Shown here: positions 1,815 through 60,337 of the stretch, in pieces
How positions within the stretch are numbered: the first letter of the stretch is position 1
Layout of the letters: every line of letters starts with the position of its first letter
Program-made: the position numbers and the translations under genes
Assembly (NCBI GenBank): GCA_964596255.1
Contig: CAZQTT010000001.1
Location: forward strand, 20,327 to 84,326
DNA length: 64,000 bases
Reading direction: 5' to 3'
DNA from: an uncultured archaeon
Lineage (GTDB): Archaea; Halobacteriota; Archaeoglobi; Archaeoglobales; Archaeoglobaceae
Notes under the pieces: generated by a model
The model's database searches: none
The model's input: the letters and a program-made list of their open reading frames with translations, nothing else
Told to the model about the DNA's origin: nothing

Positions 1815-1909
1815 CCCGCCTTAGCTCAGTGGCAGAGCGTGCGGCTGTAGTTTGTGACTTCTGCCATGCAGAAACCGCATGGTCCCCGGTTCAAATCCGG
1901 GAGGCGGGA
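1815..1909 (+). tRNA. tRNA-Tyr(GUA) with a 23-nt intron at the canonical 37/38 position
   Basis: Hand-folded cloverleaf. Acceptor stem CCCGCCT/AGGCGGG, with C1-G72, the archaeal Tyr identity pair. D stem GCTC/GAGC. Anticodon stem TGCGG/CCGCA with loop CTGTAG..A. T arm CCCGG-TTCAAAT-CCGGG. Discriminator A. Exons total 72 nt; the intron is 1851-1873. An oligo-T tract follows at 1910-1921. Confidence 0.85.
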
Positions 1910-19220: not shown

Positions 19221-22200
19221 ATGGTCTCTAACAAAACAGTACAAGATTCCCAGAAAGATGCTGAATCAGATATAAAAAAGTACAGTGAATATTTATTATA
19301 TAATCCGGAAGATATAGACGCTCATTTCAACTTGGGGATCATCTATTACGAGAAGGGAGATATAGAGAAGGCCATCAAGCAATTCGAGAAATTATTGAGT
19401 ATAAACTCAAAACATACAGAGGCTCGTTTCAACTTGGGACTTTTATATCAGGTAGAAGGAGAGTTCGATAAGGCTATAGAGCAATTCAATCAGATTCTAG
19501 AGATAAATAAAAAGGATGCTGATACTCACCTAAGCCTCGGCCTGGTCTATCTGGATAAAGGAGATCATCTTTCAGCTAAAGAAGAGGTTAAAAGAGCAAT
19601 CAAGATAGACAAAAATTATTCGGAAGCTTATTTCGCCTTGGGTAAGATTTATGAGAAGCTAAGAGAAAAGGACAAAGCTACCAAAGAATATTACAGGAGC
19701 CTAAAGATAAATCCAAAGAATACCAATGCCCTATTTAGAGTGGGGAAACTGTATGTAAATCAGGGTAACCTTAGCCAGGCCGTTGAGGAGTTTGAAAAAT
19801 ATATTAAGTGGAATCCCAGAGACTTTAGAGTTTATTACGAGCTGGGAAATATATACAACCAACTTGAGGATTACACCAAAGCCGTTCAAAAATTTGAAAA
19901 AGTCCTGAAACTGAACCCCCAAAACCTTGAAGCTCATTTTGAGCTAGGCAACGCATATTACAAATTAGAAAAGTACGATAAAGCCTCAGAAGAGTTTTAT
20001 GAGGTTTTAAAATTAGATTCACAGAATGTGGAAGCCCGATACCTCCTTGGAGTAGTATACAAAATAGTAGGATCCATCGATAAAGCTGTTGAAGAGTTTT
20101 TAGAGGTTATCAGAAGAGACCATGACCATACAGAAGCACACTACAATTTAGGAGAAGTTTATTATCTTCAGGGAGATTATTACAGTGCAATCACCGAATT
20201 TGAAAAAGTCCTGACCTCAAACCCGGAAGATACCAGAATCAACTATAAATTGGGTATCTCTTATAATGAGTTGAGGGAGTACGATAAAGCCATACAGGAG
20301 TTTGAGAAAGCTCTGAAAAATAGTTCACCAGATGCTGAGTTTCACTATCACTTGGGGGTGGCTTATTGGGGTAAATCACAGCCTGATTTGGCCTTTTCTG
20401 AGTTTGAGAAAGCCATACAGGAGGGTTTTACAGGTTCCGGTGTATACTTAAATTTAGGTTCAGTACATTATGAGAGAGGAGAGATTGATAAGGCTATTAA
20501 GAGGTATAATGAGGCTCTAAAATTAGATAATAACCTGATAGAGGCTAACATTAACCTGGGTATAATCTATTATGAGAACCACATGTATGAGAAGGCAGTT
20601 AGAGAGTTCAAAAGGATTCTGGCACTGAATCCCCATAACAATGGCATAAGGAACATGTTGGCTGTTTCTTACCTGGAACTGGGAGAACACGATTTGGCTA
20701 TACAGGAATTCAATCGAGTGTTAAAGAGGGAACCCAGAAACACTGAGGCCAGGTATAGACTAGGTCTCCTATATCTCCACAAAGAAGAGATTGAATTGGC
20801 TTTAACCGAATTTGAGGCGGTAGCGAAGGAAGGAGTAAGAGACTCTAACATACAATTTAATCTGGGATTGATATATTACAAACAGAACAGATGGGAAGAA
20901 GCAATTGAGCATTTTATACAGGTCTTGAGAATGGATCCTGCATACATTGAAGCGTACTATTATCTGGGATTGGCATACAGAAATAGAGGTGATAGGGGGC
21001 TGGCCATGAAGGAGTTTCTGGAAGTGATGAGAAGGGATCCCGATCACCTGAAGGCCCGTATTTACCTAGGAATAGATTATCTTCATCAGGAATTTTACCA
21101 CCAAGCAGTAGAGGAATTTAAAAAAGTTTTACAGTTAGACTGGAACCACATAGAAGCTTTTCTAAACTTGGGAATTGCCTACTACAAATTGAATGAAATT
21201 GATAAGGCTATAGATTGTTTTGAAGAAATACTTTGGATGGACCCCAACCACACCCAAGCCAGCTATTATCTGGGAGTTATCTACAAGGATAGAGATCCCG
21301 AAAAAGCAATTCAGGGCCTTAAAAAATTCTTAACAGAGTATCCTGACGATGCTAAGGCCCACTATGATTTGGGAACTATCTACATGGAGAAAAACGAGGT
21401 AGAGCTGGCCATAAAGGAGTTCACAAAATTCTTGGAAATAGAGGACAACCTTGAAGTGCACTATAAGTTAGGTGTAGCTTACAGCAAAAAAGAGGAAATC
21501 AAGAAAGCAATCGAGGAATTTGAAGAGATCTTGAATAGAGATGCAAACCATTTAGACGCTCAATATCAGCTGGCGCTGATCTACAAGGAGAAAGAAGACT
21601 TTGACCTTGCTATAGAGTATTTTGAGAAGATTGCAGGTAAACGCAATACCTCAAATCTTGAGATTCTTCTGGATTTGGGGCAACTCTACTATCAGAAAGG
21701 AGAGCACCAGGAAGCCATTCAAAAACTGAAGACAGTTTTGAGACTGGATCCCCACAACTCACAGGCCAGCTACACACTGGCTCAAATCTTACATGACCGG
21801 GGTGAACTGGACCAGTGTATTGAGGAATATAAGAAAATCCTGAAAGCCAATCCAGATGACACCGATACCAGGTACAAACTGGGTGTGGCGTATAGGGATG
21901 TGGGGGAGACAGATCTGGCTGCCAGAGAATTCCTGGAGGTCTTTAACAGAGATCCGAATTATTATGATGCACAACTTCAGCTAGGAGTGATCTATAAGGA
22001 CAAAGGAGACATAACTCTGGCGGCAAAAGAGTTCCAGGAAGTTCTCCATAACAATCCCCAAAATTTTGATGCACACTTCTACTTGGGGATGATCTACCAC
22101 CAGCAGGAATACGATAAAAAAGCTGCTGAAGAATTCTCTGAAATCGTTAAAGTAGATCCAGACAATATTAAGGCCTATTATGGTTCAGGATATATACACT

Positions 22201-23294
22201 TTCACCAGGGAGATTTTGAAAGAGCTGCTGAAGAATTTCAGGAAGTTCTGAACCGAGAACCCAATCATTCGGATGCCCGGGTTTATTTAGGAAAAATTTA
22301 TTACAAACTGAATGAAGTAGAAAGGGCTGTAGAGCAGTTCAAAGAGGTTTTGAGATTATATCCTAACCACATCGAGGCTAAATATAATTTAGGAGTTATT
22401 TATAAGGATACAGGAGACCTCAACAAAGCTGTCGATAACTTTAAAGAAGTGGTGGAAAAAATGCCAGATAATGTGGAAGCTCGATATGATTTGGGGTTAA
22501 TATATTACCGTATGGGGAATTTTAAGTCATCTATAGAAGAACTTGAAGAAGTGGTGCGTTGGGAGCCCCAACATGTAGACGGGCTATTAAATCTGGGATA
22601 TCTGTACTACGAGCAAAAAGAAGATGAAAAGGCAATTAGAATGTTTAATGAAGTTCTGAAACTTGATCCCCAGAATGTCAGGGCCAAATACACTTTGGGG
22701 ACTATTTATAAAAACAGGGGCGAGGATGAACAGGCCATTCAGGAGTTCAATAACATCCTGGAAAGCGCACCGGATTGTGCTGAGGCCCATCTCGATCTGG
22801 GGCTTATTTATAAAGAAAACAAAGAGGAGAAAAAGGCTATTAAAGAGCTTAAAGAAGTTTTAAGATTGAATCCCCAAAATGTAGATGCTTATTACCATCT
22901 GGGAACTATTTTACGCGACCAGGAAAAATTAGAACAAGCCATCGAAAATTATCTCCAAGTTTTGGATATCGATCCCCAACATATAGATGCTCGATTAAAC
23001 CTGGGGGCAGCATATTATTATCAGGAGAGATTTAATTTGGCCATTCAGGAGTTTAATGAAGCACTAAAACTTCAACCCCAAAATCCTGACGCTCATTTTA
23101 ATCTTGGGGTTGTCAACAAGGAAAAAGGGAATCATCAAAAGGCACTGGAACACTACAAGCTTTTCCTGGAGGTGGCTACAGCAGAGTACTCCCAATTTTT
23201 CGAAATGGTGAAGGAAACCATTGACGACATTTTGAAAGAGTGCGGTAAACCGCTGGAGATGTGGGACAGTATAAGGAATAGTATGAAAGTATAA
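19221..23294 (+). CDS. Giant tetratricopeptide-repeat protein (1357 aa, TPR units almost end to end)
   Basis: Continuous 34-aa periodicity (A.Y.LG..Y...G....AI..F...L..DP.N..A). No signal peptide is visible. Confidence 0.9.
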   Translation: MVSNKTVQDSQKDAESDIKKYSEYLLYNPEDIDAHFNLGIIYYEKGDIEKAIKQFEKLLSINSKHTEARFNLGLLYQVEGEFDKAIEQFNQILEINKKDADTHLSLGLVYLDKGDHLSAKEEVKRAIKIDKNYSEAYFALGKIYEKLREKDKATKEYYRSLKINPKNTNALFRVGKLYVNQGNLSQAVEEFEKYIKWNPRDFRVYYELGNIYNQLEDYTKAVQKFEKVLKLNPQNLEAHFELGNAYYKLEKYDKASEEFYEVLKLDSQNVEARYLLGVVYKIVGSIDKAVEEFLEVIRRDHDHTEAHYNLGEVYYLQGDYYSAITEFEKVLTSNPEDTRINYKLGISYNELREYDKAIQEFEKALKNSSPDAEFHYHLGVAYWGKSQPDLAFSEFEKAIQEGFTGSGVYLNLGSVHYERGEIDKAIKRYNEALKLDNNLIEANINLGIIYYENHMYEKAVREFKRILALNPHNNGIRNMLAVSYLELGEHDLAIQEFNRVLKREPRNTEARYRLGLLYLHKEEIELALTEFEAVAKEGVRDSNIQFNLGLIYYKQNRWEEAIEHFIQVLRMDPAYIEAYYYLGLAYRNRGDRGLAMKEFLEVMRRDPDHLKARIYLGIDYLHQEFYHQAVEEFKKVLQLDWNHIEAFLNLGIAYYKLNEIDKAIDCFEEILWMDPNHTQASYYLGVIYKDRDPEKAIQGLKKFLTEYPDDAKAHYDLGTIYMEKNEVELAIKEFTKFLEIEDNLEVHYKLGVAYSKKEEIKKAIEEFEEILNRDANHLDAQYQLALIYKEKEDFDLAIEYFEKIAGKRNTSNLEILLDLGQLYYQKGEHQEAIQKLKTVLRLDPHNSQASYTLAQILHDRGELDQCIEEYKKILKANPDDTDTRYKLGVAYRDVGETDLAAREFLEVFNRDPNYYDAQLQLGVIYKDKGDITLAAKEFQEVLHNNPQNFDAHFYLGMIYHQQEYDKKAAEEFSEIVKVDPDNIKAYYGSGYIHFHQGDFERAAEEFQEVLNREPNHSDARVYLGKIYYKLNEVERAVEQFKEVLRLYPNHIEAKYNLGVIYKDTGDLNKAVDNFKEVVEKMPDNVEARYDLGLIYYRMGNFKSSIEELEEVVRWEPQHVDGLLNLGYLYYEQKEDEKAIRMFNEVLKLDPQNVRAKYTLGTIYKNRGEDEQAIQEFNNILESAPDCAEAHLDLGLIYKENKEEKKAIKELKEVLRLNPQNVDAYYHLGTILRDQEKLEQAIENYLQVLDIDPQHIDARLNLGAAYYYQERFNLAIQEFNEALKLQPQNPDAHFNLGVVNKEKGNHQKALEHYKLFLEVATAEYSQFFEMVKETIDDILKECGKPLEMWDSIRNSMKV

Positions 23295-23329: not shown

Positions 23330-23917
23330 CTACCAGTCTTTTAGAAGTTTTTCTACTTTATCTCTAGTAATTAGCTCTTCCTCAGGCTCTTCATCAATTT
23401 CCTCTTCAAACTGGTTTAAGCTAAGTTCCTTTGAATTGGCGTCTTCTGACCCGCTATCAGTGTCTTTTTCCAGTTTTTTACCGTATTGCTCCATTATTAT
23501 CCCTGCAGCGATTTTGGCGATTCTTTGCTCGTCAATTGGGTTTTGAGTTTTACTTTCCTCTTGTTGTTCTTCTTGCTCCGTCTTATTTTGTTCCCGTTGG
23601 TCTTCGAAGTGTGAGCAGAATAAGCACATGTAGGGGTGTAGGGGTTTTGGCTTTTTACTGGCCTGGACTTTGACATCCCTATTACAATTTTCAACATCAC
23701 TGTATTTGCAGTTGTATAATCTTTCTTTGGCACAGTAATCTGCAATTTTTAAGAAATCATTTGCATTCCCAATTTCATCAATCTGAGGTTTTTTCCGCTT
23801 TAGAAAATACCATTCGAGGAGTAATTCAACTAGCTCTGATGGCTCCTTCTGTGTCTTCTTGCACTTCTCATCTAGAAGTTCTTCAACTTCTGAAGGGACA
23901 TCTACTGTAAGTTTCAT
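23330..23917 (-). CDS. RHH-like N-terminal domain protein with a Cys-rich centre and acidic tail (candidate ParR-like adaptor)
   Basis: KLTVDVPSEVEELLDEKCKK..PSELVELLLEWY fits a ribbon-helix-helix pattern. Cys pattern C-x6-C-x7-C ... C-x2-C, then a Glu/Asp-rich C-terminus. It starts 5 nt after the actin-like gene. Confidence 0.5.
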   Translation of the reverse strand: MKLTVDVPSEVEELLDEKCKKTQKEPSELVELLLEWYFLKRKKPQIDEIGNANDFLKIADYCAKERLYNCKYSDVENCNRDVKVQASKKPKPLHPYMCLFCSHFEDQREQNKTEQEEQQEESKTQNPIDEQRIAKIAAGIIMEQYGKKLEKDTDSGSEDANSKELSLNQFEEEIDEEPEEELITRDKVEKLLKDW

Positions 23918-23921
23918 TTAA

Positions 23922-24947
23922 CTAATTTTTTACTTCTATTTCTTCTTTTTTCTTTTCTTCCTTCTCTTTACCTTTGCCCTTTTGTTTAGTTTCCTTTACT
24001 GAGTCTTTTACTGTTTGAGAATCTTTATGTTTGAATAAAGATCTGGAGAGGTTGTAATACCCTTTGGCGTTACTGGAAACTGGTTCTTGTGGCCTCACTA
24101 CGTCAGCTATGTCCTGAAAATTCTTTTTGAATTCATCATAAACACCTGGCAAGAGTGACCCCCCACCAGCGAGTACTATTTGATCTACAATTTCCGTAGA
24201 CAGACCTTCTATAACTGACTTGGTTCTGCTTACTATTCTATCCAGCCATCTGTTTATTAGCCTGTCATACTCTGCCATGACTTCCTTATGAGATACTTTG
24301 ATGGTTTTACCGCTCCTTACTCTACCTATCTCATAGTTGGGGGTGGTCAGCAACCTGGTTATCTCTTCGGGAGTCACACCAATCCCATAATTCTTCCTGA
24401 TAATAACTTCCAGATTGTTGTGCAACCAATCCACTCCTTGCAAAAGCGTATCTCCTTTAACATACTCCAGTTGATGGAGAACAGCGATATCAGTCGTTCC
24501 GAACCCAATGTCCACACATACTCCTGTCTGGACACCCATATGGGCCAGTGTTCCTACAGGCTCAGGGTAAATAGCAACTTCAGCATTAAAATGCTTCTCT
24601 ATACCATTTTTAAGTTCTTCTCGCTCGTTTTTGGAAGATTTTACCGGCATTCCAGTTGCTATTACTTCCGGCTCAATATTCATTGTTTTAAAAGCGTGTT
24701 TTGCCAGTTCTATATACGACTGGCTTATAATTCGTCCTTCATGAAGTGGACGTTCTGCTTCAATATTTTCCATGTTCTGAACCATTGTTAGAGCTTCTTC
24801 TCCAACATAAGTATCCTTATTTTCCTCCTTAAAAGTCCAGTCTTTTTCGTCTTCATAAACAACTATACTGGGGAATTGAGTGACTTTTCCGCCATCCATT
24901 GTGGCTTTAGTATAGTTGGTTCCGATATCCAACCCTACTATCTTCAT
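23922..24947 (-). CDS. Actin-fold ATPase, ParM/Alp-like
   Basis: MKIVGLDIGTNYTK (phosphate 1), VCVDIGFGTTDIAV (phosphate 2) and IVLAGGGSLLPGV (adenosine). 341 aa with a Lys/Glu-rich tail. Confidence 0.75.
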   Translation of the reverse strand: MKIVGLDIGTNYTKATMDGGKVTQFPSIVVYEDEKDWTFKEENKDTYVGEEALTMVQNMENIEAERPLHEGRIISQSYIELAKHAFKTMNIEPEVIATGMPVKSSKNEREELKNGIEKHFNAEVAIYPEPVGTLAHMGVQTGVCVDIGFGTTDIAVLHQLEYVKGDTLLQGVDWLHNNLEVIIRKNYGIGVTPEEITRLLTTPNYEIGRVRSGKTIKVSHKEVMAEYDRLINRWLDRIVSRTKSVIEGLSTEIVDQIVLAGGGSLLPGVYDEFKKNFQDIADVVRPQEPVSSNAKGYYNLSRSLFKHKDSQTVKDSVKETKQKGKGKEKEEKKKEEIEVKN

Positions 24948-25052
24948 AATAATTATTGTAATTGTAAATTATATAATAATTTCCCTCAGGGTATTAGAGA
25001 TGTGATAATGCGACAAAGGGAAGTACCAAACATAAAAAAGAAAATCCCCTTC

Positions 25053-26384
25053 TTATATCCTGCAGGACTTTGGAGTGTCTAAGGAGTGAATACCCCTCGC
25101 CTTAACCACATTGAGATATCTATGGACCCCTGTTTCATCTTTTTTGAAGCTGAGTTCAATTACTGCCTGAACAAAACTCTCTTCCAGGCCGTTCTTTTCT
25201 GTGTGTTTATCCTTGACAAGCAGAACGGTACTGTCCAGATTCTCAGAATTTATTATCATTTTCCTGGCGATATCCCTGGCCCAGGGATGATTTAAAATCA
25301 GCAGTGTAGTGAAAGTATCTATAACCACTCTATTTGCCCCCACCTTCCTGATGTGCCCGTATAAATCATTCAAAATCCTTTCACAGTATTCTATAGGCGA
25401 AATATCTCCGTGGAACACCTTTTCTTTTAATTCTTCTACCTGGTGGGTCAGATCATACAGGTAGAGCAATTCACGGTCGATATAATCTCTAAGGTTGTAA
25501 TCGAGCATCTCAAAATCTTGAATAAGATGTTCTGGGTTCTGATCCGTTAAGATTAAGAGTGATTTTTCTCCTCTCCTGCAGCCTTCCAGTAAGAACCTTA
25601 TACCAAATGTAGTTTTCCCCGAACCCATATCCCCAGATAAAAGATAAACCCGGTTCTTTATGAGGCCTCCTCCCATAATCCTATCCAGCACAGGGATACC
25701 AGACGGGATGAGGTATTTTCTTTTCTCCAATAACTTATCGACAGCCTGTCTATCAAATATCTCTAATTCTCTACTTTCTGCATATTTTTTAGCTTCCTCA
25801 GATAAATTAGAGAGAGAAACGACCATGTAATCCAGTCCTATGTCATTTTCCTTTCCACAGAACTTTTTCACCTGGTTGGTGTCCACTTCCTTTCCTTCTG
25901 GTATCACATCGATAGCTGTGTCCTTCCCTTCATAGTTTGATGCAAATAAACTAATTGTGTATTTTGTTCCCGATTTCCCCACGACTTCTCCTTTTCTTAC
26001 AATGTTGCTGTATCCCTTACTTACCAGAAAGCTTTCTGCAAGTTCGAGTGACTGGTTCTCAATTTTATTGATGAGGTTTTCACAAACGTTACGGGCCATT
26101 TCAAAAGCATTATTCCACGCTGTATCCTTGTCTACCCCCTTTTTCATCTGTTCTTTTGCTTCTGTCTTTATACCGTGAAAAAGAAGCTCTTTGGTGAATC
26201 CAAACCCGTAGTCATCAATTTTTTCAATATAGTCGATAATCCTGTCTATAATTTCTTCTGATGGAGCATCCGTCTGTTTATTTGTATTCTGACGTATTTC
26301 ATTACCGACTATTGTCATCTCAATTAACTCCTGATTTAGTAACTGAAGGAGAGCCAGTTGTTTATGTGTTAATTTCCTGCACAC
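25053..26384 (-). CDS. Fusion protein: N-terminal region, Mrr-like (restriction endonuclease fold) domain and KaiC/RecA-like ATPase
   Basis: C-terminal domain has IPSGIPVLDRIMGGGL..LLSGDMGSGKTTF (Walker A) and RVVIDTF (Walker B). The middle part (LAESFLVSKGY...YMVVSLSNLSEEAKKYAESRELEIFD) resembles the Mrr catalytic-domain layout. The start could instead be the ATG at 26318, which has AGGAG upstream. Confidence 0.65.
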   Translation of the reverse strand: MCRKLTHKQLALLQLLNQELIEMTIVGNEIRQNTNKQTDAPSEEIIDRIIDYIEKIDDYGFGFTKELLFHGIKTEAKEQMKKGVDKDTAWNNAFEMARNVCENLINKIENQSLELAESFLVSKGYSNIVRKGEVVGKSGTKYTISLFASNYEGKDTAIDVIPEGKEVDTNQVKKFCGKENDIGLDYMVVSLSNLSEEAKKYAESRELEIFDRQAVDKLLEKRKYLIPSGIPVLDRIMGGGLIKNRVYLLSGDMGSGKTTFGIRFLLEGCRRGEKSLLILTDQNPEHLIQDFEMLDYNLRDYIDRELLYLYDLTHQVEELKEKVFHGDISPIEYCERILNDLYGHIRKVGANRVVIDTFTTLLILNHPWARDIARKMIINSENLDSTVLLVKDKHTEKNGLEESFVQAVIELSFKKDETGVHRYLNVVKARGIHSLDTPKSCRI

Positions 26385-26603: not shown

Positions 26604-28205
26604 TTGATTATGATAATAATAATGAATATGCAAACGGGTACTATTACTGGCCAAAGTGTTCCTAGTCATTATAAAATCATAGAACAACTTTACGGTGAAC
26701 TGGATCACAATATCTTAAACAATAAAGAGCCTCCTGAAAATATAGAGGTCATAGACGATTACTGGGTTGTGCCTGGTTTCTCTAAAATACAGATCTGGAG
26801 AGATTATGTGGATAAATTCGAGTACAATTACGTTCTTATTGAACCGCCAATATCTGAAGAGGAATACTCTCTACTTAACTCTATCTACAATGATATGAGA
26901 CGCTCTCTGGTATTGAATGACTATTCTACAGATGAGAGCACCAAAACTACGGTAATAATGGAGGTTCTGGACGAATTGATAAAGGAATATGCTCTTGAAT
27001 TGGAACCAGAGCTAAAAATGAAAATCCTGTATTATCTATTGAGGAACTTCATAGGGTTTGGTACCATAGATTCCATCCTGAACGATAAGTATGTAGAAGA
27101 TATATCATGCGATGGATATGACATCCCCCTCTACATTTTTCATACCAAGCACGGAGGGATGCGAACAAACGTGAAGCTCAGCAGGAACAGACTCGATTCT
27201 CTGGTAACACTGCTCTGCCAGAAATCAGGTAAATACATCTCTTATGCAAATCCGCTTATAGATGCTTCCCTACCTGACGGAAGCAGACTTCATGCAAGTT
27301 ACGGAGAGGAGATAACTCCCAGAGGAAGTAGTTTTACCATAAGAAAGTTCAAGGAAGACCCTTATACTCCAATCGATTTGATGAATTTCGGCACTCTAAG
27401 TTCTGACATAATCGCTTATTTCTGGTTGCTTATGGAGCACAAAATGAACGTTATGGTTATAGGGGAGACTGCCAGCGGGAAGACCACCACACTAAATGCT
27501 TTAACTATGTTCATTCCTCCCGAATCAAAAATTGTGTCCATAGAAGATACCAGAGAGATTCAACTTAATCACGAAAACTGGATAGCTGAACTAACACGAA
27601 TCGGAATTGAAGGAAGTGGAGAAATCTCAATGTATGACCTGTTGAAGACCACTTTGAGGCAAAGGCCGGATTACATAATTGTGGGTGAGATCAGGGGAGT
27701 GGAAGGGCAAACCCTTTTCCAGGCCATGTCCACAGGCCACTCGTCGCACTCTACGCTACATGCAGGGGATATGAGTCAGCTTATTTACAGATTGGAGAAC
27801 GAGCCTTTAAAGATACCCAGGATCATGATACAGTTTCTTGATGCCGTTGTGGTGCAGAACATGTGGTCCGGAAAAGGTGTGAGGAAAAGGAGAGCCAATC
27901 AGGTGAGCGAGATATTTGGTATTGACCAGACAAATAAGGATTTGCTTTTGAACCCTATTTACAAGTGGAACTCGGCGAAAGACTCGTTTGCAATTCAATC
28001 TCAATCTAAAAAACTGAAGAAGATCTCAGAAGTTACCGGTGAGAGCGTCTCCATAATTCAAGAAGAGAAAAAAAGAAGAAAATTATTCCTGGAAAAAATG
28101 CAGAGAAGAGGTATAAGCAATTATAACGACTTTTCCCATTTCGTTAATATCTATTATAAAGATAGCCAAAAAGCTATGGAGAGGTTAGATGAGGGAACGG
28201 GTTAA
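26604..28205 (+). CDS. FlaI/ArlI-like type IV filament assembly ATPase (type II/IV secretion NTPase family)
   Basis: Walker A VIGETASGKTTTLNAL, Walker B PDYIIVGEIRG and His box GHSSHSTLHA. The start is ambiguous among several TTG/ATG codons at 26604-26631. Confidence 0.9.
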   Translation: MIMIIIMNMQTGTITGQSVPSHYKIIEQLYGELDHNILNNKEPPENIEVIDDYWVVPGFSKIQIWRDYVDKFEYNYVLIEPPISEEEYSLLNSIYNDMRRSLVLNDYSTDESTKTTVIMEVLDELIKEYALELEPELKMKILYYLLRNFIGFGTIDSILNDKYVEDISCDGYDIPLYIFHTKHGGMRTNVKLSRNRLDSLVTLLCQKSGKYISYANPLIDASLPDGSRLHASYGEEITPRGSSFTIRKFKEDPYTPIDLMNFGTLSSDIIAYFWLLMEHKMNVMVIGETASGKTTTLNALTMFIPPESKIVSIEDTREIQLNHENWIAELTRIGIEGSGEISMYDLLKTTLRQRPDYIIVGEIRGVEGQTLFQAMSTGHSSHSTLHAGDMSQLIYRLENEPLKIPRIMIQFLDAVVVQNMWSGKGVRKRRANQVSEIFGIDQTNKDLLLNPIYKWNSAKDSFAIQSQSKKLKKISEVTGESVSIIQEEKKRRKLFLEKMQRRGISNYNDFSHFVNIYYKDSQKAMERLDEGTG

Positions 28206-53554: not shown

Positions 53555-54664
53555 ATGTCAGAGTCATTAGATCAGTCTTCAATACTGGTGATGCTGAAGG
53601 AGAACCCTCATGACCACGTACTTTTTAAAGCAAGGCTGGAAGAGCTTGAGGAAGTAGCCAAGGCTGTGGGATACGACGTGAAAAATAGTATGGTTCAGAC
53701 CCGGATCAAGCCGGACCCCAGATACTTCATTGGTAGCGGGAAGGTAGATGAGATCGCCGAGATGGCCGAAAAAGAGGGGATTTCTCATTTGATCTTCTGG
53801 AATATAATCTCTTCCCGACAAAAATACGATGTCGAAGCTGCTACGGGGATGAGTGTAAAAGATAGGTCCGATCTCATTCTGGAGCTCTTTTCCCAGAATG
53901 CTCACACCACCGAAGCGAAACTACAGATCGAGCTGGCAAAGATGAAGAAGTTGTTCCCTTATGAGCGCTACAAAGCGTGGATAAAGCTGCAGAGAGAGCG
54001 GCCAGGTTTCCAGTCTTCTGGTGAGTATGCCTACCACAGCAGAGTGAAACAGCTTCAGAATACCATCAAGAACACCGAGAGGAAGCTGGAAGACATTATG
54101 AGAAGAAAAAGGAATGAGATAAAGAACCGTAAAGAGATAGGGAAGCTGGTCACCATTACAGGATTCTATAACGCTGGTAAAACCACCCTGTTCAACCTGT
54201 TGACAGAAGAATCCAAACCCGTGAGCAACGTTCCCTTCACCACCCTCGCATCAAAGGTGTCTCAGGCAAAAGGAGTGCTCATTACAGATACAATTGGATT
54301 CGTACAGGATATGGACGGTCTCAAAGAGTTTATAAATTCCTTTAAACCCACTTTAGAGGACATAAGGATGGCCGACCTAATCTTGTGCATGATAGACATC
54401 TCTGACGACCCCATCATCCTGGAAAGGAAGCTGAAAGAAGCTATCAAAATCCTGGGAGAGCTGGAGGTCTCGCCCCACAGAATCCTCATACTGTTGAACA
54501 AAATCGATTTCCTAAATGAACAAGAAGTGGAAGAGCGCCTAGAAGTGGTAAAAAAATACGGTTATAACTTCCGGCTAATCTCAGCCCACACAAAAGAGGG
54601 TATCGAGGAGCTATCCCATACCTTAGAAGAACTGGGCAAAATCACAGAAAAAGTGGAGAGCTGA
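53555..54664 (+). CDS. hflX: GTPase HflX
   Basis: HflX N-terminal domain (FIGSGKVDEI, LIFWN..S..Q). G1 motif GFYNAGKTTLFNLL, then DTIGF and LNKID. The start at 53555 is preferred over the upstream alternative start. Confidence 0.85.
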   Translation: MSESLDQSSILVMLKENPHDHVLFKARLEELEEVAKAVGYDVKNSMVQTRIKPDPRYFIGSGKVDEIAEMAEKEGISHLIFWNIISSRQKYDVEAATGMSVKDRSDLILELFSQNAHTTEAKLQIELAKMKKLFPYERYKAWIKLQRERPGFQSSGEYAYHSRVKQLQNTIKNTERKLEDIMRRKRNEIKNRKEIGKLVTITGFYNAGKTTLFNLLTEESKPVSNVPFTTLASKVSQAKGVLITDTIGFVQDMDGLKEFINSFKPTLEDIRMADLILCMIDISDDPIILERKLKEAIKILGELEVSPHRILILLNKIDFLNEQEVEERLEVVKKYGYNFRLISAHTKEGIEELSHTLEELGKITEKVES

Positions 54665-54783
54665 CCGCTCCACAGTCCTGCACAGGTTACAAATAAAGAC
54701 CTGCCACCATGGTATACTTTACTCGCAATTACCAACCATGTACTATCTACCATCATCTACCATAAATTTTAAATACAATATAC

Positions 54784-54815
54784 ACTAACTTTTTGTTAGT
54801 AACTAAAAAGTAACA
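54784..54815. promoter_or_regulatory. Palindromic A/T-spacer element upstream of hsp20 (candidate heat-shock operator)
   Basis: ACTAAC-TTTTT-GTTAGT followed by AACTAAAAAGTAAC. It lies about 65-95 nt upstream of the ATG. Confidence 0.3.
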
Positions 54816-54877
54816 GGTGAACTGGTCAGGATCATATTGAATATTAATCCTGAATAAAAGTGTGGAGGTGATACTTC

Positions 54878-55450
54878 ATGGACTGTAATGATGATAAATG
54901 TAACCCCTGGAAAAGAAAAGACAAAGATAAGTTCGATGAGTTATTCGGTGGAGGCATTGACCTGGACGAGATGGTAAAGAGAATGTTCGGGGATTTCGAT
55001 GAGCTGTTTGGAAGAGAAGGACCGACTGATGGGCAACCTTATATCAAAGGATTCTCCATAAGAATGGGTCCGGAAGGTGAACCAGAAATAAGAGAGTTTG
55101 GAAATACAGGCGGCATATGCGGAACAGGTGGTTTCGAAGGACATAGAGTGCCTGAGGAGCAAGAACAGGAGACTTTGATAGACGTAATGAAGGATGACGA
55201 AGAAGTACACGTGATTGCTGATATGCCAGGTGTCAACAAGGAAGATATTGACGTCAACGCTTCAACAACTTCAGTTAATATCACAGCGGAAGGAGAGAGC
55301 AGAGAATATTCAGAAAATGTGGACTTGGGATGTGAGGTTTATCCCGACTCATCTAAAGCCAGATACAATAACGGAGTCCTGGAAGTTACGTTGAAGAGAA
55401 AAGAGCCACAAGAAGAAGAGAAAGAACAGACTAAAGTTGAAGTGGAGTAA
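54878..55450 (+). CDS. Small heat-shock protein (Hsp20/alpha-crystallin) with an N-terminal extension
   Basis: Alpha-crystallin core DVMKDDEEVHVIADMPGVNKEDIDV...ARYNNGVLEVTLKRK. GGAGGTGAT SD sequence upstream. Confidence 0.85.
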   Translation: MDCNDDKCNPWKRKDKDKFDELFGGGIDLDEMVKRMFGDFDELFGREGPTDGQPYIKGFSIRMGPEGEPEIREFGNTGGICGTGGFEGHRVPEEQEQETLIDVMKDDEEVHVIADMPGVNKEDIDVNASTTSVNITAEGESREYSENVDLGCEVYPDSSKARYNNGVLEVTLKRKEPQEEEKEQTKVEVE

Positions 55451-55579
55451 TCCACTATTACCAGTACCCTTAACATCAGTTACTTCTTTTTTTTCTTTTT
55501 TAATTTGGTTTCAGATTTCAGACCGAAATATATAAAAAGAAAATAGAAAATAGAATAGAGATTTTTTAAAATCAGTTTT

Positions 55580-55837
55580 TCAGGTCTGGTCTCTATTATT
55601 GTATTTTTCCAAGACGGCGTTGAACAGTTTCTCTCTTGCTTCTTTTGATATGGGGTGGAAGATGTCCCTGTAGGTGTCGTTCTTGCGGTCATATCTGCTG
55701 GGCATAGCCACCCAAAGACCATCATTCCCTTCCATAACCTTCAGGCCATGAATAGCGTATTCGTCATCCAAAACTACGTCTGCAAAAGCTTTTTGCTGTC
55801 CAGATCCACCAGATCCACTAAATTCAAATATTCTCAC
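55580..55837 (-). CDS. spoVG: SpoVG-family protein
   Basis: KAFADVVLDDEYAIHGLKVMEGNDGLWVAMPSR...YRDIFHPISKEAREKLFNAVLEKY aligns along its length with bacterial SpoVG as I recall it (..[35 protein letters not shown]..Y). Confidence 0.7.
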   Translation of the reverse strand: MRIFEFSGSGGSGQQKAFADVVLDDEYAIHGLKVMEGNDGLWVAMPSRYDRKNDTYRDIFHPISKEAREKLFNAVLEKYNNRDQT

Positions 55838-55891
55838 ATATTACCATATTTTTTAAAAAATTTTAAATACTATGCTAATTAATATTATATT

Positions 55892-56470
55892 ATGAGGAAA
55901 AAAGGAGGAAAGGAAAAGAGTTTAAAAGCACAGAAGACCAGTGAAGGCAAGTATAAGTATAAGATGGTTGGTGTTTTAACAGAAAACGGAGAGAAAGGAA
56001 TATGGAAGACGGAGGCTGAAAAAGAGGGCGTACCTTTATCGGAGTTTGTGAGAGATGCGGTAAATGCCAGAATAATGGACATAAGACCAGCCAAAGATAC
56101 ATTGACAGATACAGGAGAGTTAGATAGATTAAAGCAGGAAAATCAAAGGCTTGAGAAAGAGAAAAGAGAACTAAGCGAAGAAGTTGAGAAGCTAAAACAG
56201 GAGCTTTCTATTCTCAGGGATGCTTACACCAGCAAAACCGGGGATTGGTTAGATAAGATATTGGCAGTCATTCCAGAGGATGGATACAAGAAGCCACGAG
56301 ACATTTTGATTGATGCTGGATTAATCAAGGAATGGTCAAGTGATGAAGAGTGGTATGAAGCTCAACAGCGATTTCAAGATGAGATTAGAGAGTTTAGTGA
56401 GAAGTGCGAGAAAGAGGGAAAGCCATTCCCGTTAATCTATACGGAGGGTCGAGGATGGAAGCACAAGTAA
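55892..56470 (+). CDS. Hypothetical protein with an RHH-like segment and a coiled coil
   Basis: GVPLSEFVRDAVNARIMD is CopG-like. A leucine-zipper-like stretch ELDRLKQENQRLEKEKRELSEEVEKLKQEL follows. Confidence 0.5.
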   Translation: MRKKGGKEKSLKAQKTSEGKYKYKMVGVLTENGEKGIWKTEAEKEGVPLSEFVRDAVNARIMDIRPAKDTLTDTGELDRLKQENQRLEKEKRELSEEVEKLKQELSILRDAYTSKTGDWLDKILAVIPEDGYKKPRDILIDAGLIKEWSSDEEWYEAQQRFQDEIREFSEKCEKEGKPFPLIYTEGRGWKHK

Positions 56471-57315
56471 TGGTAAAGGATTATATAGATAGATTGGAGG
56501 AAGTAGGGAAGGCAGAAACTACTATTAACACTTACGGGCAAACATTATCAAGTTTCATTAAGTTCCTCGATGGAAAACCTTTGGATGAGGTCAAAGAGCG
56601 AGATATTCGAAGGTTCTTGAAGAAAGATGGTGAGTTAAAGCCGAGAACTAAGAAAAGCTATTGCATACGGATTTTTAGATTTTATGAGTGGGTGATAGAA
56701 GAGGAAGAGTTGAATATTAAGAACCCAGCTAAGAAAATCAGAGAGGAAATTAACGGTAGCAATGGACATGAAGAAGAGAAAGAGGTTCTATCAGTCGAGG
56801 AAGTAAGGAAACTAATCCAGTCAATAGAGAGTCCGAGAAAAAAGGCAATGCTCTTGGTTCTTTATAAATCTGGTATGAGATGTATGGAGTTAAAGAACCT
56901 GGATAAATCTGATGTGGATTTTGACACAGGGAAAATAATAATAAAGCGAAGGAAAGGCGGTAAGAGAGGGTATGTTTTTGTGGACGACGAGGCTCTTAAA
57001 TGGCTTAAGTTTTATCTCTCAACGAGATGGGACGACCATGAAGCATTGTTCACATGCAGTAAGGGAAGGATAACCAGACACAATTTGAGCAAGACAATTA
57101 TAGAAACGTTAAAAAAAGCAGGTTACGAAGGTTTAACGGCTCATGACTGGAGACACATATTCACAACGCACATGAGGCAAGCTGGATGTGACCTTGAAGT
57201 GATTAGAGTATTGAGGGGCGATTCTCCAGGAAACATGACTGAATACTATACGCATTACAGTGAGGAGGACATCAGGACAGAGTATTTGAGATGTGTCCCC
57301 CGCTTATACGTCTGA
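56455..57315 (+). CDS. Tyrosine recombinase/integrase (XerC/D-phage integrase family)
   Basis: SAM-like N-terminal domain. Catalytic residues lie in SGMRCMEL (Arg), HDWRHIF (His-x-x-Arg) and the YYTHY region (Tyr). The start is 56455 or 56470 (TAATG overlap). Confidence 0.85.
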   Translation: MEAQVMVKDYIDRLEEVGKAETTINTYGQTLSSFIKFLDGKPLDEVKERDIRRFLKKDGELKPRTKKSYCIRIFRFYEWVIEEEELNIKNPAKKIREEINGSNGHEEEKEVLSVEEVRKLIQSIESPRKKAMLLVLYKSGMRCMELKNLDKSDVDFDTGKIIIKRRKGGKRGYVFVDDEALKWLKFYLSTRWDDHEALFTCSKGRITRHNLSKTIIETLKKAGYEGLTAHDWRHIFTTHMRQAGCDLEVIRVLRGDSPGNMTEYYTHYSEEDIRTEYLRCVPRLYV

Positions 57316-57483
57316 ACTAAATTTTTTTCTTGCTCCTATTAATATAATTAAATTCACTATCCTGTTTCATTTAGTAGTTATGTAAACTATTATTTTATAG
57401 TAAATCGAGAAAACTATATATTAGCAAATTTATTATTATTATGGGCAAAGGTAAAGCACCTAAGCCCGAAAGAGGTGATAAAA

Positions 57484-57912
57484 ATGGCGGAAGAAAAGAA
57501 CAAGCAGGAAGTAGATGTGTTTGAGGTTGTGGATGGTGTAGAGGATGTTGGAACCCTCAAAGAGCTCCAGCAGTTAATTAATGGCAAGATTGACGAGTTG
57601 AGGAAAGCCAACGCGAAACCCTGGAAGAAGGCATCGTTTAAAATGTTCTGGAACAAAACAAGCGAGGATGTCCAGCGATTAGTGCTTCAATTGGCAGAGA
57701 ATGGTGGTAGTGCTTACAAGGAAGACTTACTCGAAAAAATGGATTGGGAACAGATGAAGTTAACCGGTATGTTGGCTGGTGTCAGTAACAAAGCAAGGAA
57801 CATGGGTTATAAAGACATAGTAACCAGAGAGAACGTCAAGGACGAAGATGGTAACTGGCATGTTCAATATAAACTTGATGAAGACATCCAGAAGTTTATT
57901 AAGGAACTATAA
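57484..57912 (+). CDS. Hypothetical protein
   Basis: ORF with AGAGG 8 nt upstream of the ATG at 57484. No motif recognised. Confidence 0.5.
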   Translation: MAEEKNKQEVDVFEVVDGVEDVGTLKELQQLINGKIDELRKANAKPWKKASFKMFWNKTSEDVQRLVLQLAENGGSAYKEDLLEKMDWEQMKLTGMLAGVSNKARNMGYKDIVTRENVKDEDGNWHVQYKLDEDIQKFIKEL

Positions 57913-57941
57913 GTCCTTTATTTCTTTTTTTGGTGGTTGAG

Positions 57942-58082
57942 ATGGGAAAGTGCTTGTGGTGTGGTAAAGAGACTGATTACGATTGGTGCTGTGAAGAACA
58001 TAGACGCTGTTTAAAGTGTGGCAATAAACTTGAGCCTGAAGACGACATTTACTGTATTCTGTGTTCTATGGGGGTAAAATAA
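57942..58082 (+). CDS. Zinc-ribbon mini-protein (46 aa)
   Basis: Found by hand translation, below the track cutoff. MGKCLWCGKE..CCEEHRRCLKCGNK..YCILC. The stop overlaps the next ATG (TAATG). Confidence 0.55.
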   Translation: MGKCLWCGKETDYDWCCEEHRRCLKCGNKLEPEDDIYCILCSMGVK

Positions 58083-58207
58083 TGTATTGCTGCCAAGAAT
58101 GCGGTTATAGATTTAATACGATTGAAGAAGCCATAGAAGCTTTTCACTCAGATGAGGGTTGTCCAGAGTGCGGGAGCACAGATATTGATTTATGTGAGGA
58201 ACCATGA
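58082..58207 (+). CDS. Zinc-ribbon mini-protein (41 aa)
   Basis: Found by hand translation. MYCCQECGYRF...GCPECGSTD. The stop overlaps the next ATG (ATGA). Confidence 0.55.
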   Translation: MYCCQECGYRFNTIEEAIEAFHSDEGCPECGSTDIDLCEEP

Positions 58208-58317
58208 ATAAAAGACGTTGGATATGCCGGAAGTGTGGTAAAGTAATCTTGAGCTCCGAGAAACCAAACGAACGTTGCAGGAAAGGACATATGTGTGAAT
58301 TTGAACGAGAGTTCTAA
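58204..58317 (+). CDS. Zinc-ribbon mini-protein (37 aa)
   Basis: Found by hand translation. MNKRRWICRKCGK...ERCRKGHMC. Confidence 0.5.
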   Translation: MNKRRWICRKCGKVILSSEKPNERCRKGHMCEFEREF

Positions 58318-58650
58318 ATTTTTTTCTCGAATCGGCGTATACCAAATTTTAAACCGGTATGATAAGTTTCGGTTCAACGATATATTGTTGGTCATCTTTA
58401 TCGTAAATCTTCGATAGGAACCAGCATTACATTGGTGCCTTTTTATGGTGATGAGTCAGCATGGGGGGGTTCGAGGACTCGAAAATGATGAGTGATTAAA
58501 AGAACGATATCCTTCAATAACTCAAAATTTTATTTTGTTTCCTTCGATTAGGAAGTCAAATATAAGCTGTCCTTCAATAACTTATAGGCGACAACCAAAT
58601 ATTTATACTTCTATTAACATAATATTTATAATAATAAAGAGGTTGCTATA

Positions 58651-58845
58651 ATGAAGTGCAAAAAGTGTGGTTACGAATGGCAGAACAGGGTTCCGAATCC
58701 AAAGCAGTGTCCTGCTTGTAAGAATCCACTGAAGAAGTCAAAGAAGCCTAAACCAGATACCAACTGTAAATTCTGTAATCATAAGTGGAAAAAGCGAGTG
58801 AATTCGCCGAAACAATGCCCGAGTTGTCATCGTTATTTGAGATAA
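58651..58845 (+). CDS. Double zinc-ribbon protein (64 aa)
   Basis: Two internal repeats: CKKCGYEWQNRVPNPKQCPACKN and CKFCNHKWKKRVNSPKQCPSCHR. Confidence 0.65.
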   Translation: MKCKKCGYEWQNRVPNPKQCPACKNPLKKSKKPKPDTNCKFCNHKWKKRVNSPKQCPSCHRYLR

Positions 58846-58863
58846 GTATTGGAGATGTAAAAA

Positions 58864-59046
58864 ATGAAGGAATTTAATATAGATATAAGAGAAGGTGAGA
58901 AGCTCATTTACACGATAGAAGTTAAAGTGCATTATAATGACGAAGAGCCCGAGTTTAGTGATGTCTTTGAGAAAATGGCTGAGTTTCTGAACATAGGATT
59001 TCAAGACAACGGTGTACAGCGAGAGTTCAGCATGGAAGTAGCATGA
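58864..59046 (+). CDS. Hypothetical protein (60 aa)
   Basis: ORF tightly packed between neighbours, with a 4-nt overlap with the next gene. Confidence 0.45.
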   Translation: MKEFNIDIREGEKLIYTIEVKVHYNDEEPEFSDVFEKMAEFLNIGFQDNGVQREFSMEVA

Positions 59047-59639
59047 CTTCTGAAGTGCTTGAGCAAATTATTGAGGTTCTTAGAGAAGAGGAACCACTCG
59101 GAAGTCCACAGATAGCGGAGAAGATAGGAGTACCAACGCAATGCGTAGCACAAGTGGTTAGACATGGTAGTGGAGTTCATCAATATAAGGGGATGTATTT
59201 CGCCAGTGAGCGTAACTTGCAAATTTACAAGATAAAGGAGATCCTAAAGAAGGAAGAACCATTGAAAGCTCGTGAGATTGCTGAGAGGCTTGGAAGAGAA
59301 ACTAATTCCGTATCAAAGATAATACGTCACCACGGAGAGGGTATTAAAAGTCGTAAAGGTAAGTATGCTCTCAACCCCGATAAATTGCCGGAGGAAGGCG
59401 ATAAATACGAGTGTCCTTACTGTTATGAGATTGTAGAAGATTTTAGGGGTTTTGTAAAACACATTAATAAGAACCACAACCATGGTACGTGCCCTGTTTG
59501 TGGAAAGAAGTGCAGAGAACTGGAAATACACGCAGTAAAGAAGTCAGAACGCTGTGAGGAACATTATTTGTATTATGGTTTGATTAGTAGAACAGACCAG
59601 GAGGCAAGGCAGTATGCAGAGGAATATTGTCGGTGCTAG
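59043..59639 (+). CDS. Putative DNA-binding protein: two winged-helix-like repeats plus a C2H2/C4 zinc finger
   Basis: Duplicated segment (EEPLGSPQIAEKIGVPTQCVAQVVRHG / EEPLKAREIAERLGRETNSVSKIIRHHG). Then CPYC..H..H and CPVCGKKC. Confidence 0.6.
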   Translation: MTSEVLEQIIEVLREEEPLGSPQIAEKIGVPTQCVAQVVRHGSGVHQYKGMYFASERNLQIYKIKEILKKEEPLKAREIAERLGRETNSVSKIIRHHGEGIKSRKGKYALNPDKLPEEGDKYECPYCYEIVEDFRGFVKHINKNHNHGTCPVCGKKCRELEIHAVKKSERCEEHYLYYGLISRTDQEARQYAEEYCRC

Positions 59640-59646
59640 AAATTAT

Positions 59647-59736
59647 ATGTGCCCATATTGTCGCTATACGTGGCAGGATAGGGCAGAGCCGATGGAATGC
59701 CCCAATTGTGGTGGTAAGTTCAAGAAATCACGATGA
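59647..59736 (+). CDS. Zinc-ribbon mini-protein (29 aa)
   Basis: Found by hand translation. MCPYCRYTWQDRAEPMECPNCGG resembles the repeats of the 64-aa protein. Confidence 0.45.
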   Translation: MCPYCRYTWQDRAEPMECPNCGGKFKKSR

Positions 59737-60332: not shown

Positions 60333-60337
60333 TTACA

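Follow-up and report, generated by a model that had tools for sequence, protein, structure and literature searches.

The subject of this contribution is a pair of adjacent genes in a stretch of 64,000 nucleotides from an uncultured archaeon of the Archaeoglobaceae (contig CAZQTT010000001.1 of assembly GCA_964596255.1, positions 20,327 to 84,326), which is referred to as the window in the following. The first gene codes for an actin-like ATPase and is followed on the same strand by a gene for a small partner protein; stop and start codon are separated by 4 nt (TAG-TTAA-ATG). A previous reading of the DNA without database searches (the sequence-only reading) had described the two genes as a ParMR-style cassette, consisting of a ParM-like actin and a ribbon-helix-helix (RHH) adaptor and embedded in a chromosomal pilus-type locus. 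Both open reading frames (ORFs) were placed correctly in that reading, only the distance between them was given as 5 nt; the spacer of 105 bp upstream of the actin gene (24948-25052) is as claimed, and profile matches agree with the flanking genes named there, one KaiC-like and one FlaI-like. The chromosomal location is likewise backed by the housekeeping genes of the window (NFACT/RqcH, ELP3, catalase, CorA, aminotransferase, AFOR and tRNA-Thr). No integrase or replication genes adjoin the cassette according to the ORF list and the Pfam matches of the window, and the orthologues of Archaeoglobus veneficus and A. profundus are located on complete chromosomes in housekeeping contexts.

The gene pair is not restricted to the window. 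We found 270 homologues of the actin, essentially all of them in Archaeoglobi; the named hosts are A. veneficus, A. profundus, A. sulfaticallidus, A. neptunius, Geoglobus and Ferroglobus, and the respective proteins are mostly annotated as “rod shape-determining protein (MreB)” at NCBI. Directly behind the actin gene of A. veneficus and A. profundus lies an unannotated ORF of 170 or 165 amino acids (aa) that is a plain homologue of the window partner, and the neighbours of the pair are unrelated housekeeping genes, with no pilus genes among them. Of 58 Archaeoglobi loci, taken from species-representative genomes that are mostly metagenome-assembled genomes (MAGs), 46 have a gene for a partner homologue immediately behind the actin gene, and in 29 of them stop and start codons overlap by 4 nt. 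This recurrence rules out chance, and the gene pair is a real unit. The tree of the partner proteins mirrors that of the actins, including the duplication that gave rise to the window clade and its sister clade, and the two distance matrices are correlated with r = 0.88. From the congruence of the two trees (compared with each other, not with a species tree) and from the restriction to Archaeoglobi, the cassette appears to have been inherited vertically.

The actin-like protein contains all three nucleotide-binding motifs that had been listed for it before (DIGTNYTK, aa 7-14; DIGFGTTDIAV, aa 146-156; LAGGGSLLPGV, aa 259-269); across the 16 family members that were aligned, the core residues of these phosphate-1, phosphate-2 and adenosine motifs do not vary. 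The order of the motifs had been taken as a sign of ParM or Alp proteins, but it is common to all actin-fold ATPases and thus not specific for ParM. The best profile in any database was phrog_691 of PHROGs (“partition protein”; 103.8 bits, full length). In Pfam, MreB_Mbl (74.1 bits, cut-off 27, full length), ALP_N (43.2 bits, cut-off 26.3) and Actin (30.7 bits) were each matched above cut-off, and MreB_Mbl, ALP_N and MreB-like_C were found in all 16 family members scanned. A best match to a sugar kinase or an Hsp70-type ATPase, which the sequence-only reading had named as the finding that would speak against it, was not obtained: profiles of polymerising actins rank first and HSP70 scores 12 bits. 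As judged from these matches, the 341-aa protein is an actin-fold ATPase of the polymerising kind and neither a sugar kinase nor an Hsp70.

Assignment to one of the established actin families was less successful. Pfam StbA gave no match at E ≤ 0.1, PRK13917, the ParM model of NCBIfam, aligned only with aa 113-308 at 40.6 bits (cut-off 417), and neither ParM nor crenactin was present among the 50 PDB matches of the single sequence (all that this search returned) or among the best 60 of the 88 PDB matches of the family profile. Membership in ParM/StbA is thus not borne out. Of the solved proteins, MamK (51 bits) and MreB (44-47 bits) score highest with the family profile, followed by eukaryotic actins (about 30 bits; actin 31) and Ta0583 (29.5 bits). 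In contrast to Pfam MreB_Mbl, the following models remained below their cut-offs: 70.7 versus 293 bits (PRK13927) and 57.8 versus 365.75 bits (TIGR00904) for MreB, 54.1 versus 400 bits for MamK (NF040964), 13.8 versus 27.1 bits (PF25229) and 16.2 versus 400 bits (NF053533) for salactin, 22 versus 35 bits for volactin (PF25216), and 15 versus 27 bits (PF11104, aa 252-291 only) and 17.2 versus 133 bits (TIGR01175) for PilM. The Salactin and Volactin models gave weak matches in only three and four of the 16 family members. The match to ALP_N is above cut-off, yet this domain is common to many families of actin-like proteins (ALPs), and the combination of ALP_N with MreB-like_C is also present in an actin-like protein of Nitrososphaerota and in plasmid proteins annotated as ParM/StbA. 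When the hidden Markov model (HMM) of the family was run against outsiders, a Nitrososphaerota ALP (68 bits), a plasmid “ParM/StbA” protein (64 bits), a Njordarchaeota ALP (62 bits) and a true MreB (60 bits) scored similarly. Since the NCBIfam cut-offs for MreB, MamK, ParM, salactin and PilM are missed widely and the outside families are about equally distant, we place the Archaeoglobi actin, on the basis of its sequence, as an orphan actin-like family between MreB/MamK and the plasmid ALPs. In this sense the protein may loosely be called “ParM-like”, but the term does not hold for family membership. All members of the family have a low-complexity C-terminal tail rich in Lys and Glu (about aa 306-341; reverse strand, 23922-24020 of the window), which ends in a polybasic cluster (...KKKK) in most members; this tail could bind DNA, anionic lipid or the acidic linker of the partner.

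The partner protein is annotated only as “hypothetical protein” throughout its family, and for the full-length sequence no match above cut-off was found in Pfam, NCBIfam or the PDB sequences. Its layout (Table 1) was deduced from conserved columns and from an AlphaFold2 (AF2) model that was built on an alignment of 46 sequences and has a mean predicted local distance difference test score (pLDDT) of 71.5. The RHH-like N-terminus noticed in the sequence-only reading was recovered by several approaches. Pfam RHH_1 matches at 15.2 bits (cut-off 20.5, E = 0.022), with aa 3-35 in register with positions 2-34 of the 39 positions of the model. The profile of the partner family, run against 1.84 billion representative proteins, returned its own family, fragments and one further protein, P0174 (E = 9e-4), which is an ordinary RHH_1 protein (RHH_1 at 3.8e-9). 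The AF2 model shows an extended stretch (aa 1-8) and then helices at aa 9-22 and 26-40; the block means of pLDDT are 73-88 for aa 1-30 and 72 for aa 31-40. Foldseek against the PDB gave 13 matches, and eight of them, among these the two best, are to small RHH regulators (AmrZ, CopG, Arc, AvtR and CdbA); the TM-scores normalised to the target are 0.64-0.80 for AmrZ, CopG and Arc and 0.34-0.61 for AvtR and CdbA at root-mean-square deviations of 0.9-2.6 Å. The corresponding E-values of 3.5-8 are not significant because the RHH domain is tiny.

A Cys-rich centre had also been noticed correctly, although the first spacing is C-x7-C and not C-x6-C: the six cysteines of the window partner (C19, C62, C70, C78, C98 and C101) form the pattern C-x7-C-x7-C ... 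C-x2-C. Only C70, C78, C98 and C101 are invariant in the family (C-x7-C-x19-C-x2-C). They lie in a helical domain, modelled with mean pLDDT values of 65-91 in blocks of ten residues, in which C70 and C78 are located in short beta elements, C98 in a short helix and C101 just past it; a conserved helix of the small-xxx-small type with the invariant residues A134 and A138 follows. Foldseek revealed no structural match to this Cys4 domain in the PDB. We assume that the four cysteines bind a metal, probably Zn. The disordered linker downstream varies in length and charge across the family and is expanded in the window clade; pLDDT values below 50 were otherwise obtained for the connector after the RHH domain (aa 42-49) and for the last three residues. 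The C-terminus is the opposite of variable: a terminal Trp is present in 48 of 48 distinct partner sequences, within the motif h-x-K-L-L-x-x-W-COOH. By analogy with the tails of ParR, CorR and arcadin-2 this peptide is a candidate for an actin-docking tail. Apart from the fragments and P0174, relatives outside of Archaeoglobi were found neither by a word-indexed search with a profile of 19 sequences nor by the HMM scan of the 1.84 billion representatives. The partner thus represents, as far as can be judged from sequence comparison, a protein family with an RHH domain, a Cys4 domain and a W-terminal peptide that is confined to Archaeoglobi.

Table 1 Features of the actin-partner locus and its surroundings in the window (positions in the 64,000-nt stretch)
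Feature	Position	Strand	Basis
Actin-like (ALP) ATPase, 341 aa	23922-24947	-	ORF list and profile matches
Partner (“adaptor”) protein, 195 aa	23330-23917	-	ORF list; partner homologues directly downstream of the actin gene elsewhere
Partner aa 1-40, CopG-type RHH, MKLTVDVPSEVEELLDEKCKKTQKEPSELVELLLEWYF	23798-23917	-	Pfam, AF2 and Foldseek
Partner aa 52-150, helical domain with four invariant Cys	23468-23764	-	Invariant columns and AF2 model
Partner aa 151-182, disordered, strongly acidic linker	23372-23467	-	pLDDT < 50 for aa 156-182
Partner aa 183-195, C-terminal helix-peptide ITRDKVEKLLKDW-COOH	23333-23371	-	Conservation and AF2 helix 185-193
Promoter-proximal conserved block, directly upstream of the actin ATG	24948-24985	-	Conservation
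Oligo-T tract just past the stop codon of the KaiC-like gene (25053-25055)	25034-25044	-	Sequence
KaiC-like ATPase, 443 aa, upstream of the actin gene, same strand	25053-26384	-	Pfam KaiC, 139 bits
TPR protein, 1357 aa, convergent on the cassette	19221-23294	+	ORF list; almost all TPR repeats
Type IV pilus operon (archaeal), diverging from the KaiC-like gene	26604-32288	+	Profile matches

The region upstream of the actin gene is of interest because type II partition systems of the ParMRC kind combine actin and adaptor with an array of repeats, the centromere parC. Within the spacer, a block of 38 nt next to the start codon is near-identical in the window and in the loci L005, L006 and L012, and the remaining spacer diverges. 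The block contains an element resembling a B recognition element and TATA box (BRE/TATA; TTATATAA, 24969-24976) about 25 nt before the ATG, a distance that suggests a leaderless mRNA. It also contains ACAAT twice and, as an imperfect inverted repeat, AATTATTATA-N11-TACAATAATT; this inverted repeat was reported in L005. A 17-mer from the block occurs only once in the 64-kb window. The block presumably functions as a promoter or operator. Oligo-T is a known termination signal of the archaeal RNA polymerase, and the tract downstream of the KaiC-like gene is a probable terminator that separates this gene from the actin operon. Together with the TATA element of the conserved block this would provide the cassette with a promoter of its own.

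Centromere-like iterons, which the sequence-only reading had suggested to look for in the spacer and its flanks, were not detected: searches for multi-copy direct, inverted and tandem repeats revealed no iteron array between 23200 and 26700 or between 17000 and 34000, the spacer included. Since no such array is present in the spacer, the flanks or the region of 17-34 kb, the parC that defines a ParMRC system is missing from the locus. A conserved upstream repeat or motif other than BRE/TATA was also not found in other members of the family, neither by eye in 49 loci nor by a repeat search in ten. Short repeats upstream of a second, paralogous cassette were seen in two species, with TTTCAGT in four copies in L007 (5883-5910) and a 13-mer and a 10-mer in two copies each in L062 (5813-5832 and 5856-5881). 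As a centromere we have set them aside; they differ between both species.

The same upstream region bears on the question whether the small protein is an adaptor at all. It could be a transcription factor only, i.e. an RHH autorepressor of an MreB-like actin, perhaps with metal or redox sensing by Cys4, and have no role as a physical adaptor. RHH N-termini are typical of small repressors, the promoter-proximal block conserved upstream of the operon in the window clade contains short repeats, both direct and inverted, a centromere-like array is absent and some of the actins have no partner, all of which is in line with a repressor. What a mere repressor leaves unexplained is the ...KLLxxW end on a variable disordered linker in each of the 48 sequences, the tight translational coupling downstream of a structural gene and the strict co-duplication with the actin; moreover, nothing beyond BRE/TATA is shared upstream in the family as a whole. 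Because of the invariant C-terminal peptide on its disordered linker, the translational coupling and the co-duplication we prefer a physical adaptor and consider a function in repression only as unlikely.

The best-scoring profile of the actin and the arrangement of the genes raise the possibility that the cassette is the remnant of a mobile element, i.e. the ParMRC partition cassette of an integrated plasmid or virus. A phage-derived “partition protein” family ranks first among the profiles, the ALP_N and MreB-like_C pattern is common to plasmid proteins annotated as ParM/StbA, and the same gene order is present in the Bacillus phage IEBH and in a Delftia plasmid. Against this stand the confinement of the family to Archaeoglobi, the congruent trees of actin and partner, the housekeeping contexts, the low identity to the phage and plasmid relatives (at most 29%) and the lack of iterons and of adjacent integrase or replication genes. 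An origin as an integrated element is therefore very improbable in our view. Of a ParMR-style cassette, the architecture and the gene order with translational coupling, as in the actin-like modules of plasmids and phages, can be retained, whereas membership in ParM, iterons and plasmid character find no support.

The copy in the window differs from the rest of the family in its surroundings and in its partner protein. The order KaiC - actin - partner - TPR next to a pilus operon is limited to a single clade, formed by the window, L005, L006 and L012; the contig of L012 begins inside the KaiC-like gene, and only the KaiC, actin, partner and TPR genes are visible there. Fifty-four of the 58 family loci have no pilus genes nearby. 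The embedding in a pilus locus thus holds for the window, L005 and L006 (and in part for L012), but it is not a trait of the family and characterises one recent paralogue clade. Three MAGs of the window lineage have three actin paralogues each (L005, L007 and L060; L006, L062 and L024; L012, L008 and L037). The second cassette (L007, L062 and L008), whose actin is 72-73% identical, is located between an amino-acid ABC transporter and leuC/thiC-like genes. The third actin has no partner within the flank in L060 and L024, and L037 ends 2 nt past the actin gene. The presence of the second cassette in the same MAGs indicates that the window copy is a recent duplicate which now resides in a pilus/KaiC/TPR locus. 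The long acidic tail described in the sequence-only reading is reflected in a net charge of -16 and an isoelectric point (pI) of 4.7 for the window partner. Such strongly acidic partners are restricted to the window, L005, L006 and L012 (pI 4.6-4.7, net charge -16 to -24); the pI values are 5.3-8.9 elsewhere in the family and 6.1-7.5 for the second cassette of the same genomes. The acidity is not a property of the whole proteome, because L005 (pI 4.7) and L007 (pI 7.5) belong to the same MAG. In the window clade a basic stretch after CLFC has turned acidic and the linker has become longer, while the residues of the RHH strand that contact DNA (K/R2 and T4) are retained. The loss of the basic segment and the strong acidity suggest that partner or cargo of the window adaptor has changed, i.e. 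a neofunctionalisation.

One way in which this could have happened is that the window copy was recruited after the duplication by the adjacent type IV pilus machinery, as a cytoplasmic component similar to PilM or as a regulator, and may work together with the KaiC-like ATPase and the TPR protein. The arrangement from KaiC to TPR beside FlaI, FlaJ and a pilin gene is kept in L005 and L006 (from KaiC to TPR only in L012), and it is exactly this clade in which the partner has diverged by acidification, loss of the basic patch and extension of the linker. An association of KaiC-like ATPases with archaeal pilus loci is known (PMC4858521). However, the PilM models score 15-17 bits against cut-offs of 27 and 133, so that its proposed role as a functional analogue of bacterial PilM finds no backing in the profiles; the cassette has its own promoter and lies behind a terminator-like tract, the great majority of family loci (54 of 58) lack pilus genes nearby, and the census of archaeal type IV pili includes no actin-like component (PMC4858521). 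We also found no actin in archaeal pilus loci in the open-access literature. The adjacency in four close species may just reflect the site of insertion, and we regard a pilus function of the window copy as improbable.

The genes around the cassette complete the picture of the locus. The pilus operon, which is syntenic in L005 and L006, codes for a FlaI/PilB3-like ATPase, a FlaJ/PilC-like membrane protein and a pilin-like protein of 734 aa with Big_1 domains, as indicated by matches to T2SSE (124 bits), PilB3_C, T2SSF (98 bits), Big_1 and, weakly, Pilin_N. The N-terminus of the 734-aa protein (30084-32288, forward strand) resembles a class III signal peptide and precedes the Big_1 domains; its gene is followed by one for a signalling protein with three PAS domains and DUF835 (32410-34239, forward strand). 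In the 443-aa KaiC-like ATPase about 110 N-terminal aa without assignment come before a weak match to Mrr_cat (restriction-endonuclease-like; aa 114-218, 20.4 bits, cut-off 21) and the KaiC domain. The TPR protein is syntenic in L005, L006 and L012 at 60-76% identity, and behind its gene comes a second, small one of the KaiC/ArlH-like type. C-terminal peptides are frequent ligands of TPR domains, and a link between this protein and the ...KLLKDW tail of the partner is conceivable but purely speculative. A defence island was considered and rejected: PADLOC gave no match for the actin, the partner or a KaiC-like protein of 249 aa, only two weak matches for the 443-aa KaiC-like protein (mad8 and GajB, 13-16 bits), and one for the TPR protein that is due to its TPR repeats only. 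A non-coding RNA was dismissed as well, Rfam matches being absent between 17000 and 34000. Elsewhere in the window, the call of a tRNA-Thr(TGT) at 1815-1909 (forward strand) has a length of 95 nt, which suggests an intron-containing archaeal tRNA, and the region of about 54000-64000, with a G+C content down to 0.33-0.40, a strongly positive GC skew and a gene for a DUF3987-like protein (60736-62043), may be an integrated mobile element.

Comparison with known systems places the pair close to, but outside of, the described actin-adaptor modules. With ParMRC (ParM/ParR/parC of R1 and the Alp7A, AlfA and BtParM of Firmicutes) it shares a gene for an actin-fold ATPase followed by a small, often overlapping gene whose product starts with an RHH domain and ends in a short conserved tail, and on the side of the actin the ALP_N match above the Pfam cut-off and the phage/plasmid “partition protein” as the best profile. 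Unlike ParMRC, the actin is outside of the curated ParM/StbA models, the locus has no parC-like iteron array, and the pair is chromosomal, limited to one archaeal class and, by inference, vertically inherited; the partner has a Cys4 domain in addition, and homology to a phage ParR-like protein could not be detected. Within the actin superfamily, ParMs are set apart by a closed beta-barrel domain (PMC12270681). In plasmids and phages the partition genes with ALPs are arranged alike, and the small downstream gene overlaps with the first. In Bacillus phage IEBH the product of this gene, gp75 (L068, 2971-3297), overlaps an actin-like “partition protein” gene and has an RHH-like N-terminus, an acidic linker and the end ...NGFNDW. 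We rejected gp75 as a homologue of the partner, as hhalign against the partner family finds no homology; the shared terminal Trp is a coincidence or possibly a convergence.

Archaeal actins offer other points of reference. Salactin, volactin and Ta0583 of Thermoplasma are, like the protein described here, chromosomal actins from the neighbourhood of MreB, MamK and the ALPs; we expect ALP_N and MreB-like_C in Ta0583, too, since PF21522 is named for an archaeal actin homologue. The Archaeoglobi actin differs from salactin and volactin in that it misses both family models. Crenactin resembles the present case in its neighbouring small protein, arcadin-2, which reportedly binds the archaeal actin through a C-terminal peptide; arcadin-2 is not an RHH protein, however, and belongs to a different phylum. 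Salactin is nearest to MamK, has relatives in Archaeoglobi and has been proposed to partition DNA; the synteny around its gene is poorly conserved and the respective study names no partner or adaptor (PMC10746226).

Chromosomal ParMR pairs without parC also exist in bacteria, i.e. CorMR of Anabaena (bioRxiv 10.1101/2025.06.27.661541) and the chromosome-encoded ParMs, or cParMs (PMC12270681). They resemble the Archaeoglobi pair in the combination of a chromosomal actin with an RHH adaptor in the absence of parC repeats, in an apparently vertical inheritance within their clade and in a disordered segment of the adaptor before a short C-terminal helix. The difference is that they are bacterial and belong to the ParM clade, while the Archaeoglobi actin is similar to MreB/MamK and has an archaeal host. 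The Anabaena pair controls cell shape and not DNA segregation (bioRxiv 10.1101/2025.06.27.661541), and an analogous function has to be considered here: the actin may form a cortical cytoskeleton of the CorMR or MreB type for shape, envelope or division site, with the partner tethering the filaments to the membrane or another structure instead of DNA. In agreement with this, MreB_Mbl is the best curated Pfam match, MamK (51 bits) and MreB (47 bits) are the closest solved relatives by sequence profile, and the conserved polybasic end of the actin could bind anionic lipids. MamK has an acidic adaptor, MamJ (taken from the reference list of PMC10746226), and the window partner is acidic, too. But CorR tethers its filaments to the membrane through an amphipathic helix, whereas the Archaeoglobi partner has a Cys4 domain in addition, and no amphipathic membrane-targeting helix or transmembrane segment was noticed in its sequence or in the secondary structure of the AF2 model, as far as can be said without a dedicated prediction of membrane helices. 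The DNA-contact strand of the RHH domain is kept even in the acidic paralogue. From MreB and MamK themselves the actin differs in its pairing with an RHH protein and in scores far below both NCBIfam cut-offs. Genes of an elongasome (mreC, mreD, rodA or pbp2) are absent from the window and from L001, L003 and L007, as are magnetosome genes from the neighbourhood; the true MreB loci that we retrieved as distant matches do have elongasome-type neighbours. Archaeoglobi are irregular cocci that are not known to have a sacculus, which also counts against a function in cell shape. We hold a cortical cytoskeleton to be rather unlikely and nevertheless treat a CorMR-like role without DNA as a serious rival.

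The reading that we prefer, with moderate confidence, is that of a self-contained chromosomal operon specific for Archaeoglobi, which codes for an actin-like ATPase that probably forms filaments and for its cognate RHH adaptor, and which is similar to ParMR without being a member of ParMRC. In such a system the actin-like ATPase would polymerise in a nucleotide-dependent manner, the C-terminal peptide of the adaptor would dock on the actin, and the RHH/Cys4 part would bind the cargo. DNA is the most probable cargo because of the RHH domain. The DNA targets of the adaptor may include the conserved promoter-proximal element, which would result in autoregulation.

Several observations weigh against this adaptor model. 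The missing repeat array has been mentioned; the statistics for the RHH domain are individually weak, with the Pfam match below cut-off and Foldseek E-values of 3.5 and above; and the strongly acidic partner of the window clade is atypical of a DNA-binding adaptor. In addition, 12 of the 58 loci are without a partner gene. Two of these run off the contig, but the other ten belong to three clades of the actin tree, and no partner was found within 6 kb of the actin gene in them, even by a six-frame HMM search. Judging from these loci, the actin can evidently do without a partner or use one that is encoded elsewhere. Partner-bearing and partner-less actins were found to differ only by Y176F and L200I, which is neutral with regard to a docking site.

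It is tempting to go one step further. The operon could represent a dedicated cytomotive system that segregates or positions chromosomal DNA, with an MreB/MamK-like filament and an RHH-Cys4 adaptor that couples the filament ends to DNA via the ...KLLxxW tail. This would be an archaeal chromosomal counterpart of type II partition with an origin independent of ParM, and in one lineage a duplicate with the acidified adaptor would have come under a new connection, namely to a type IV pilus locus regulated by KaiC and TPR. We offer this extension of the adaptor model as a tentative proposal that is, taken as a whole, rather unlikely.

To our knowledge, it is largely unknown how euryarchaea move and partition their DNA. 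The known archaeal partition systems are of the ParA type (SegAB), and we know of no archaeal actin other than salactin that has been linked to DNA partitioning, and of no adaptor or centromere for the latter. What is new here is an archaeal variant of the actin and RHH-adaptor modules; a description of the Archaeoglobi pair was not found in the open-access literature. The annotation of the family as “rod shape-determining protein MreB” is corrected, and the partner defines a protein family that has had no Pfam match and only “hypothetical” annotations so far. The three paralogues of the window lineage, one of them linked to a pilus locus and equipped with an acidified adaptor and another without a partner, represent a natural experiment, and thermostable orthologues are available from the cultured A. 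veneficus, A. profundus and Geoglobus. An actin gene that is locked to an RHH-type partner across a whole class thus provides a tractable pair for asking whether and how archaeal actins drive segregation or positioning.

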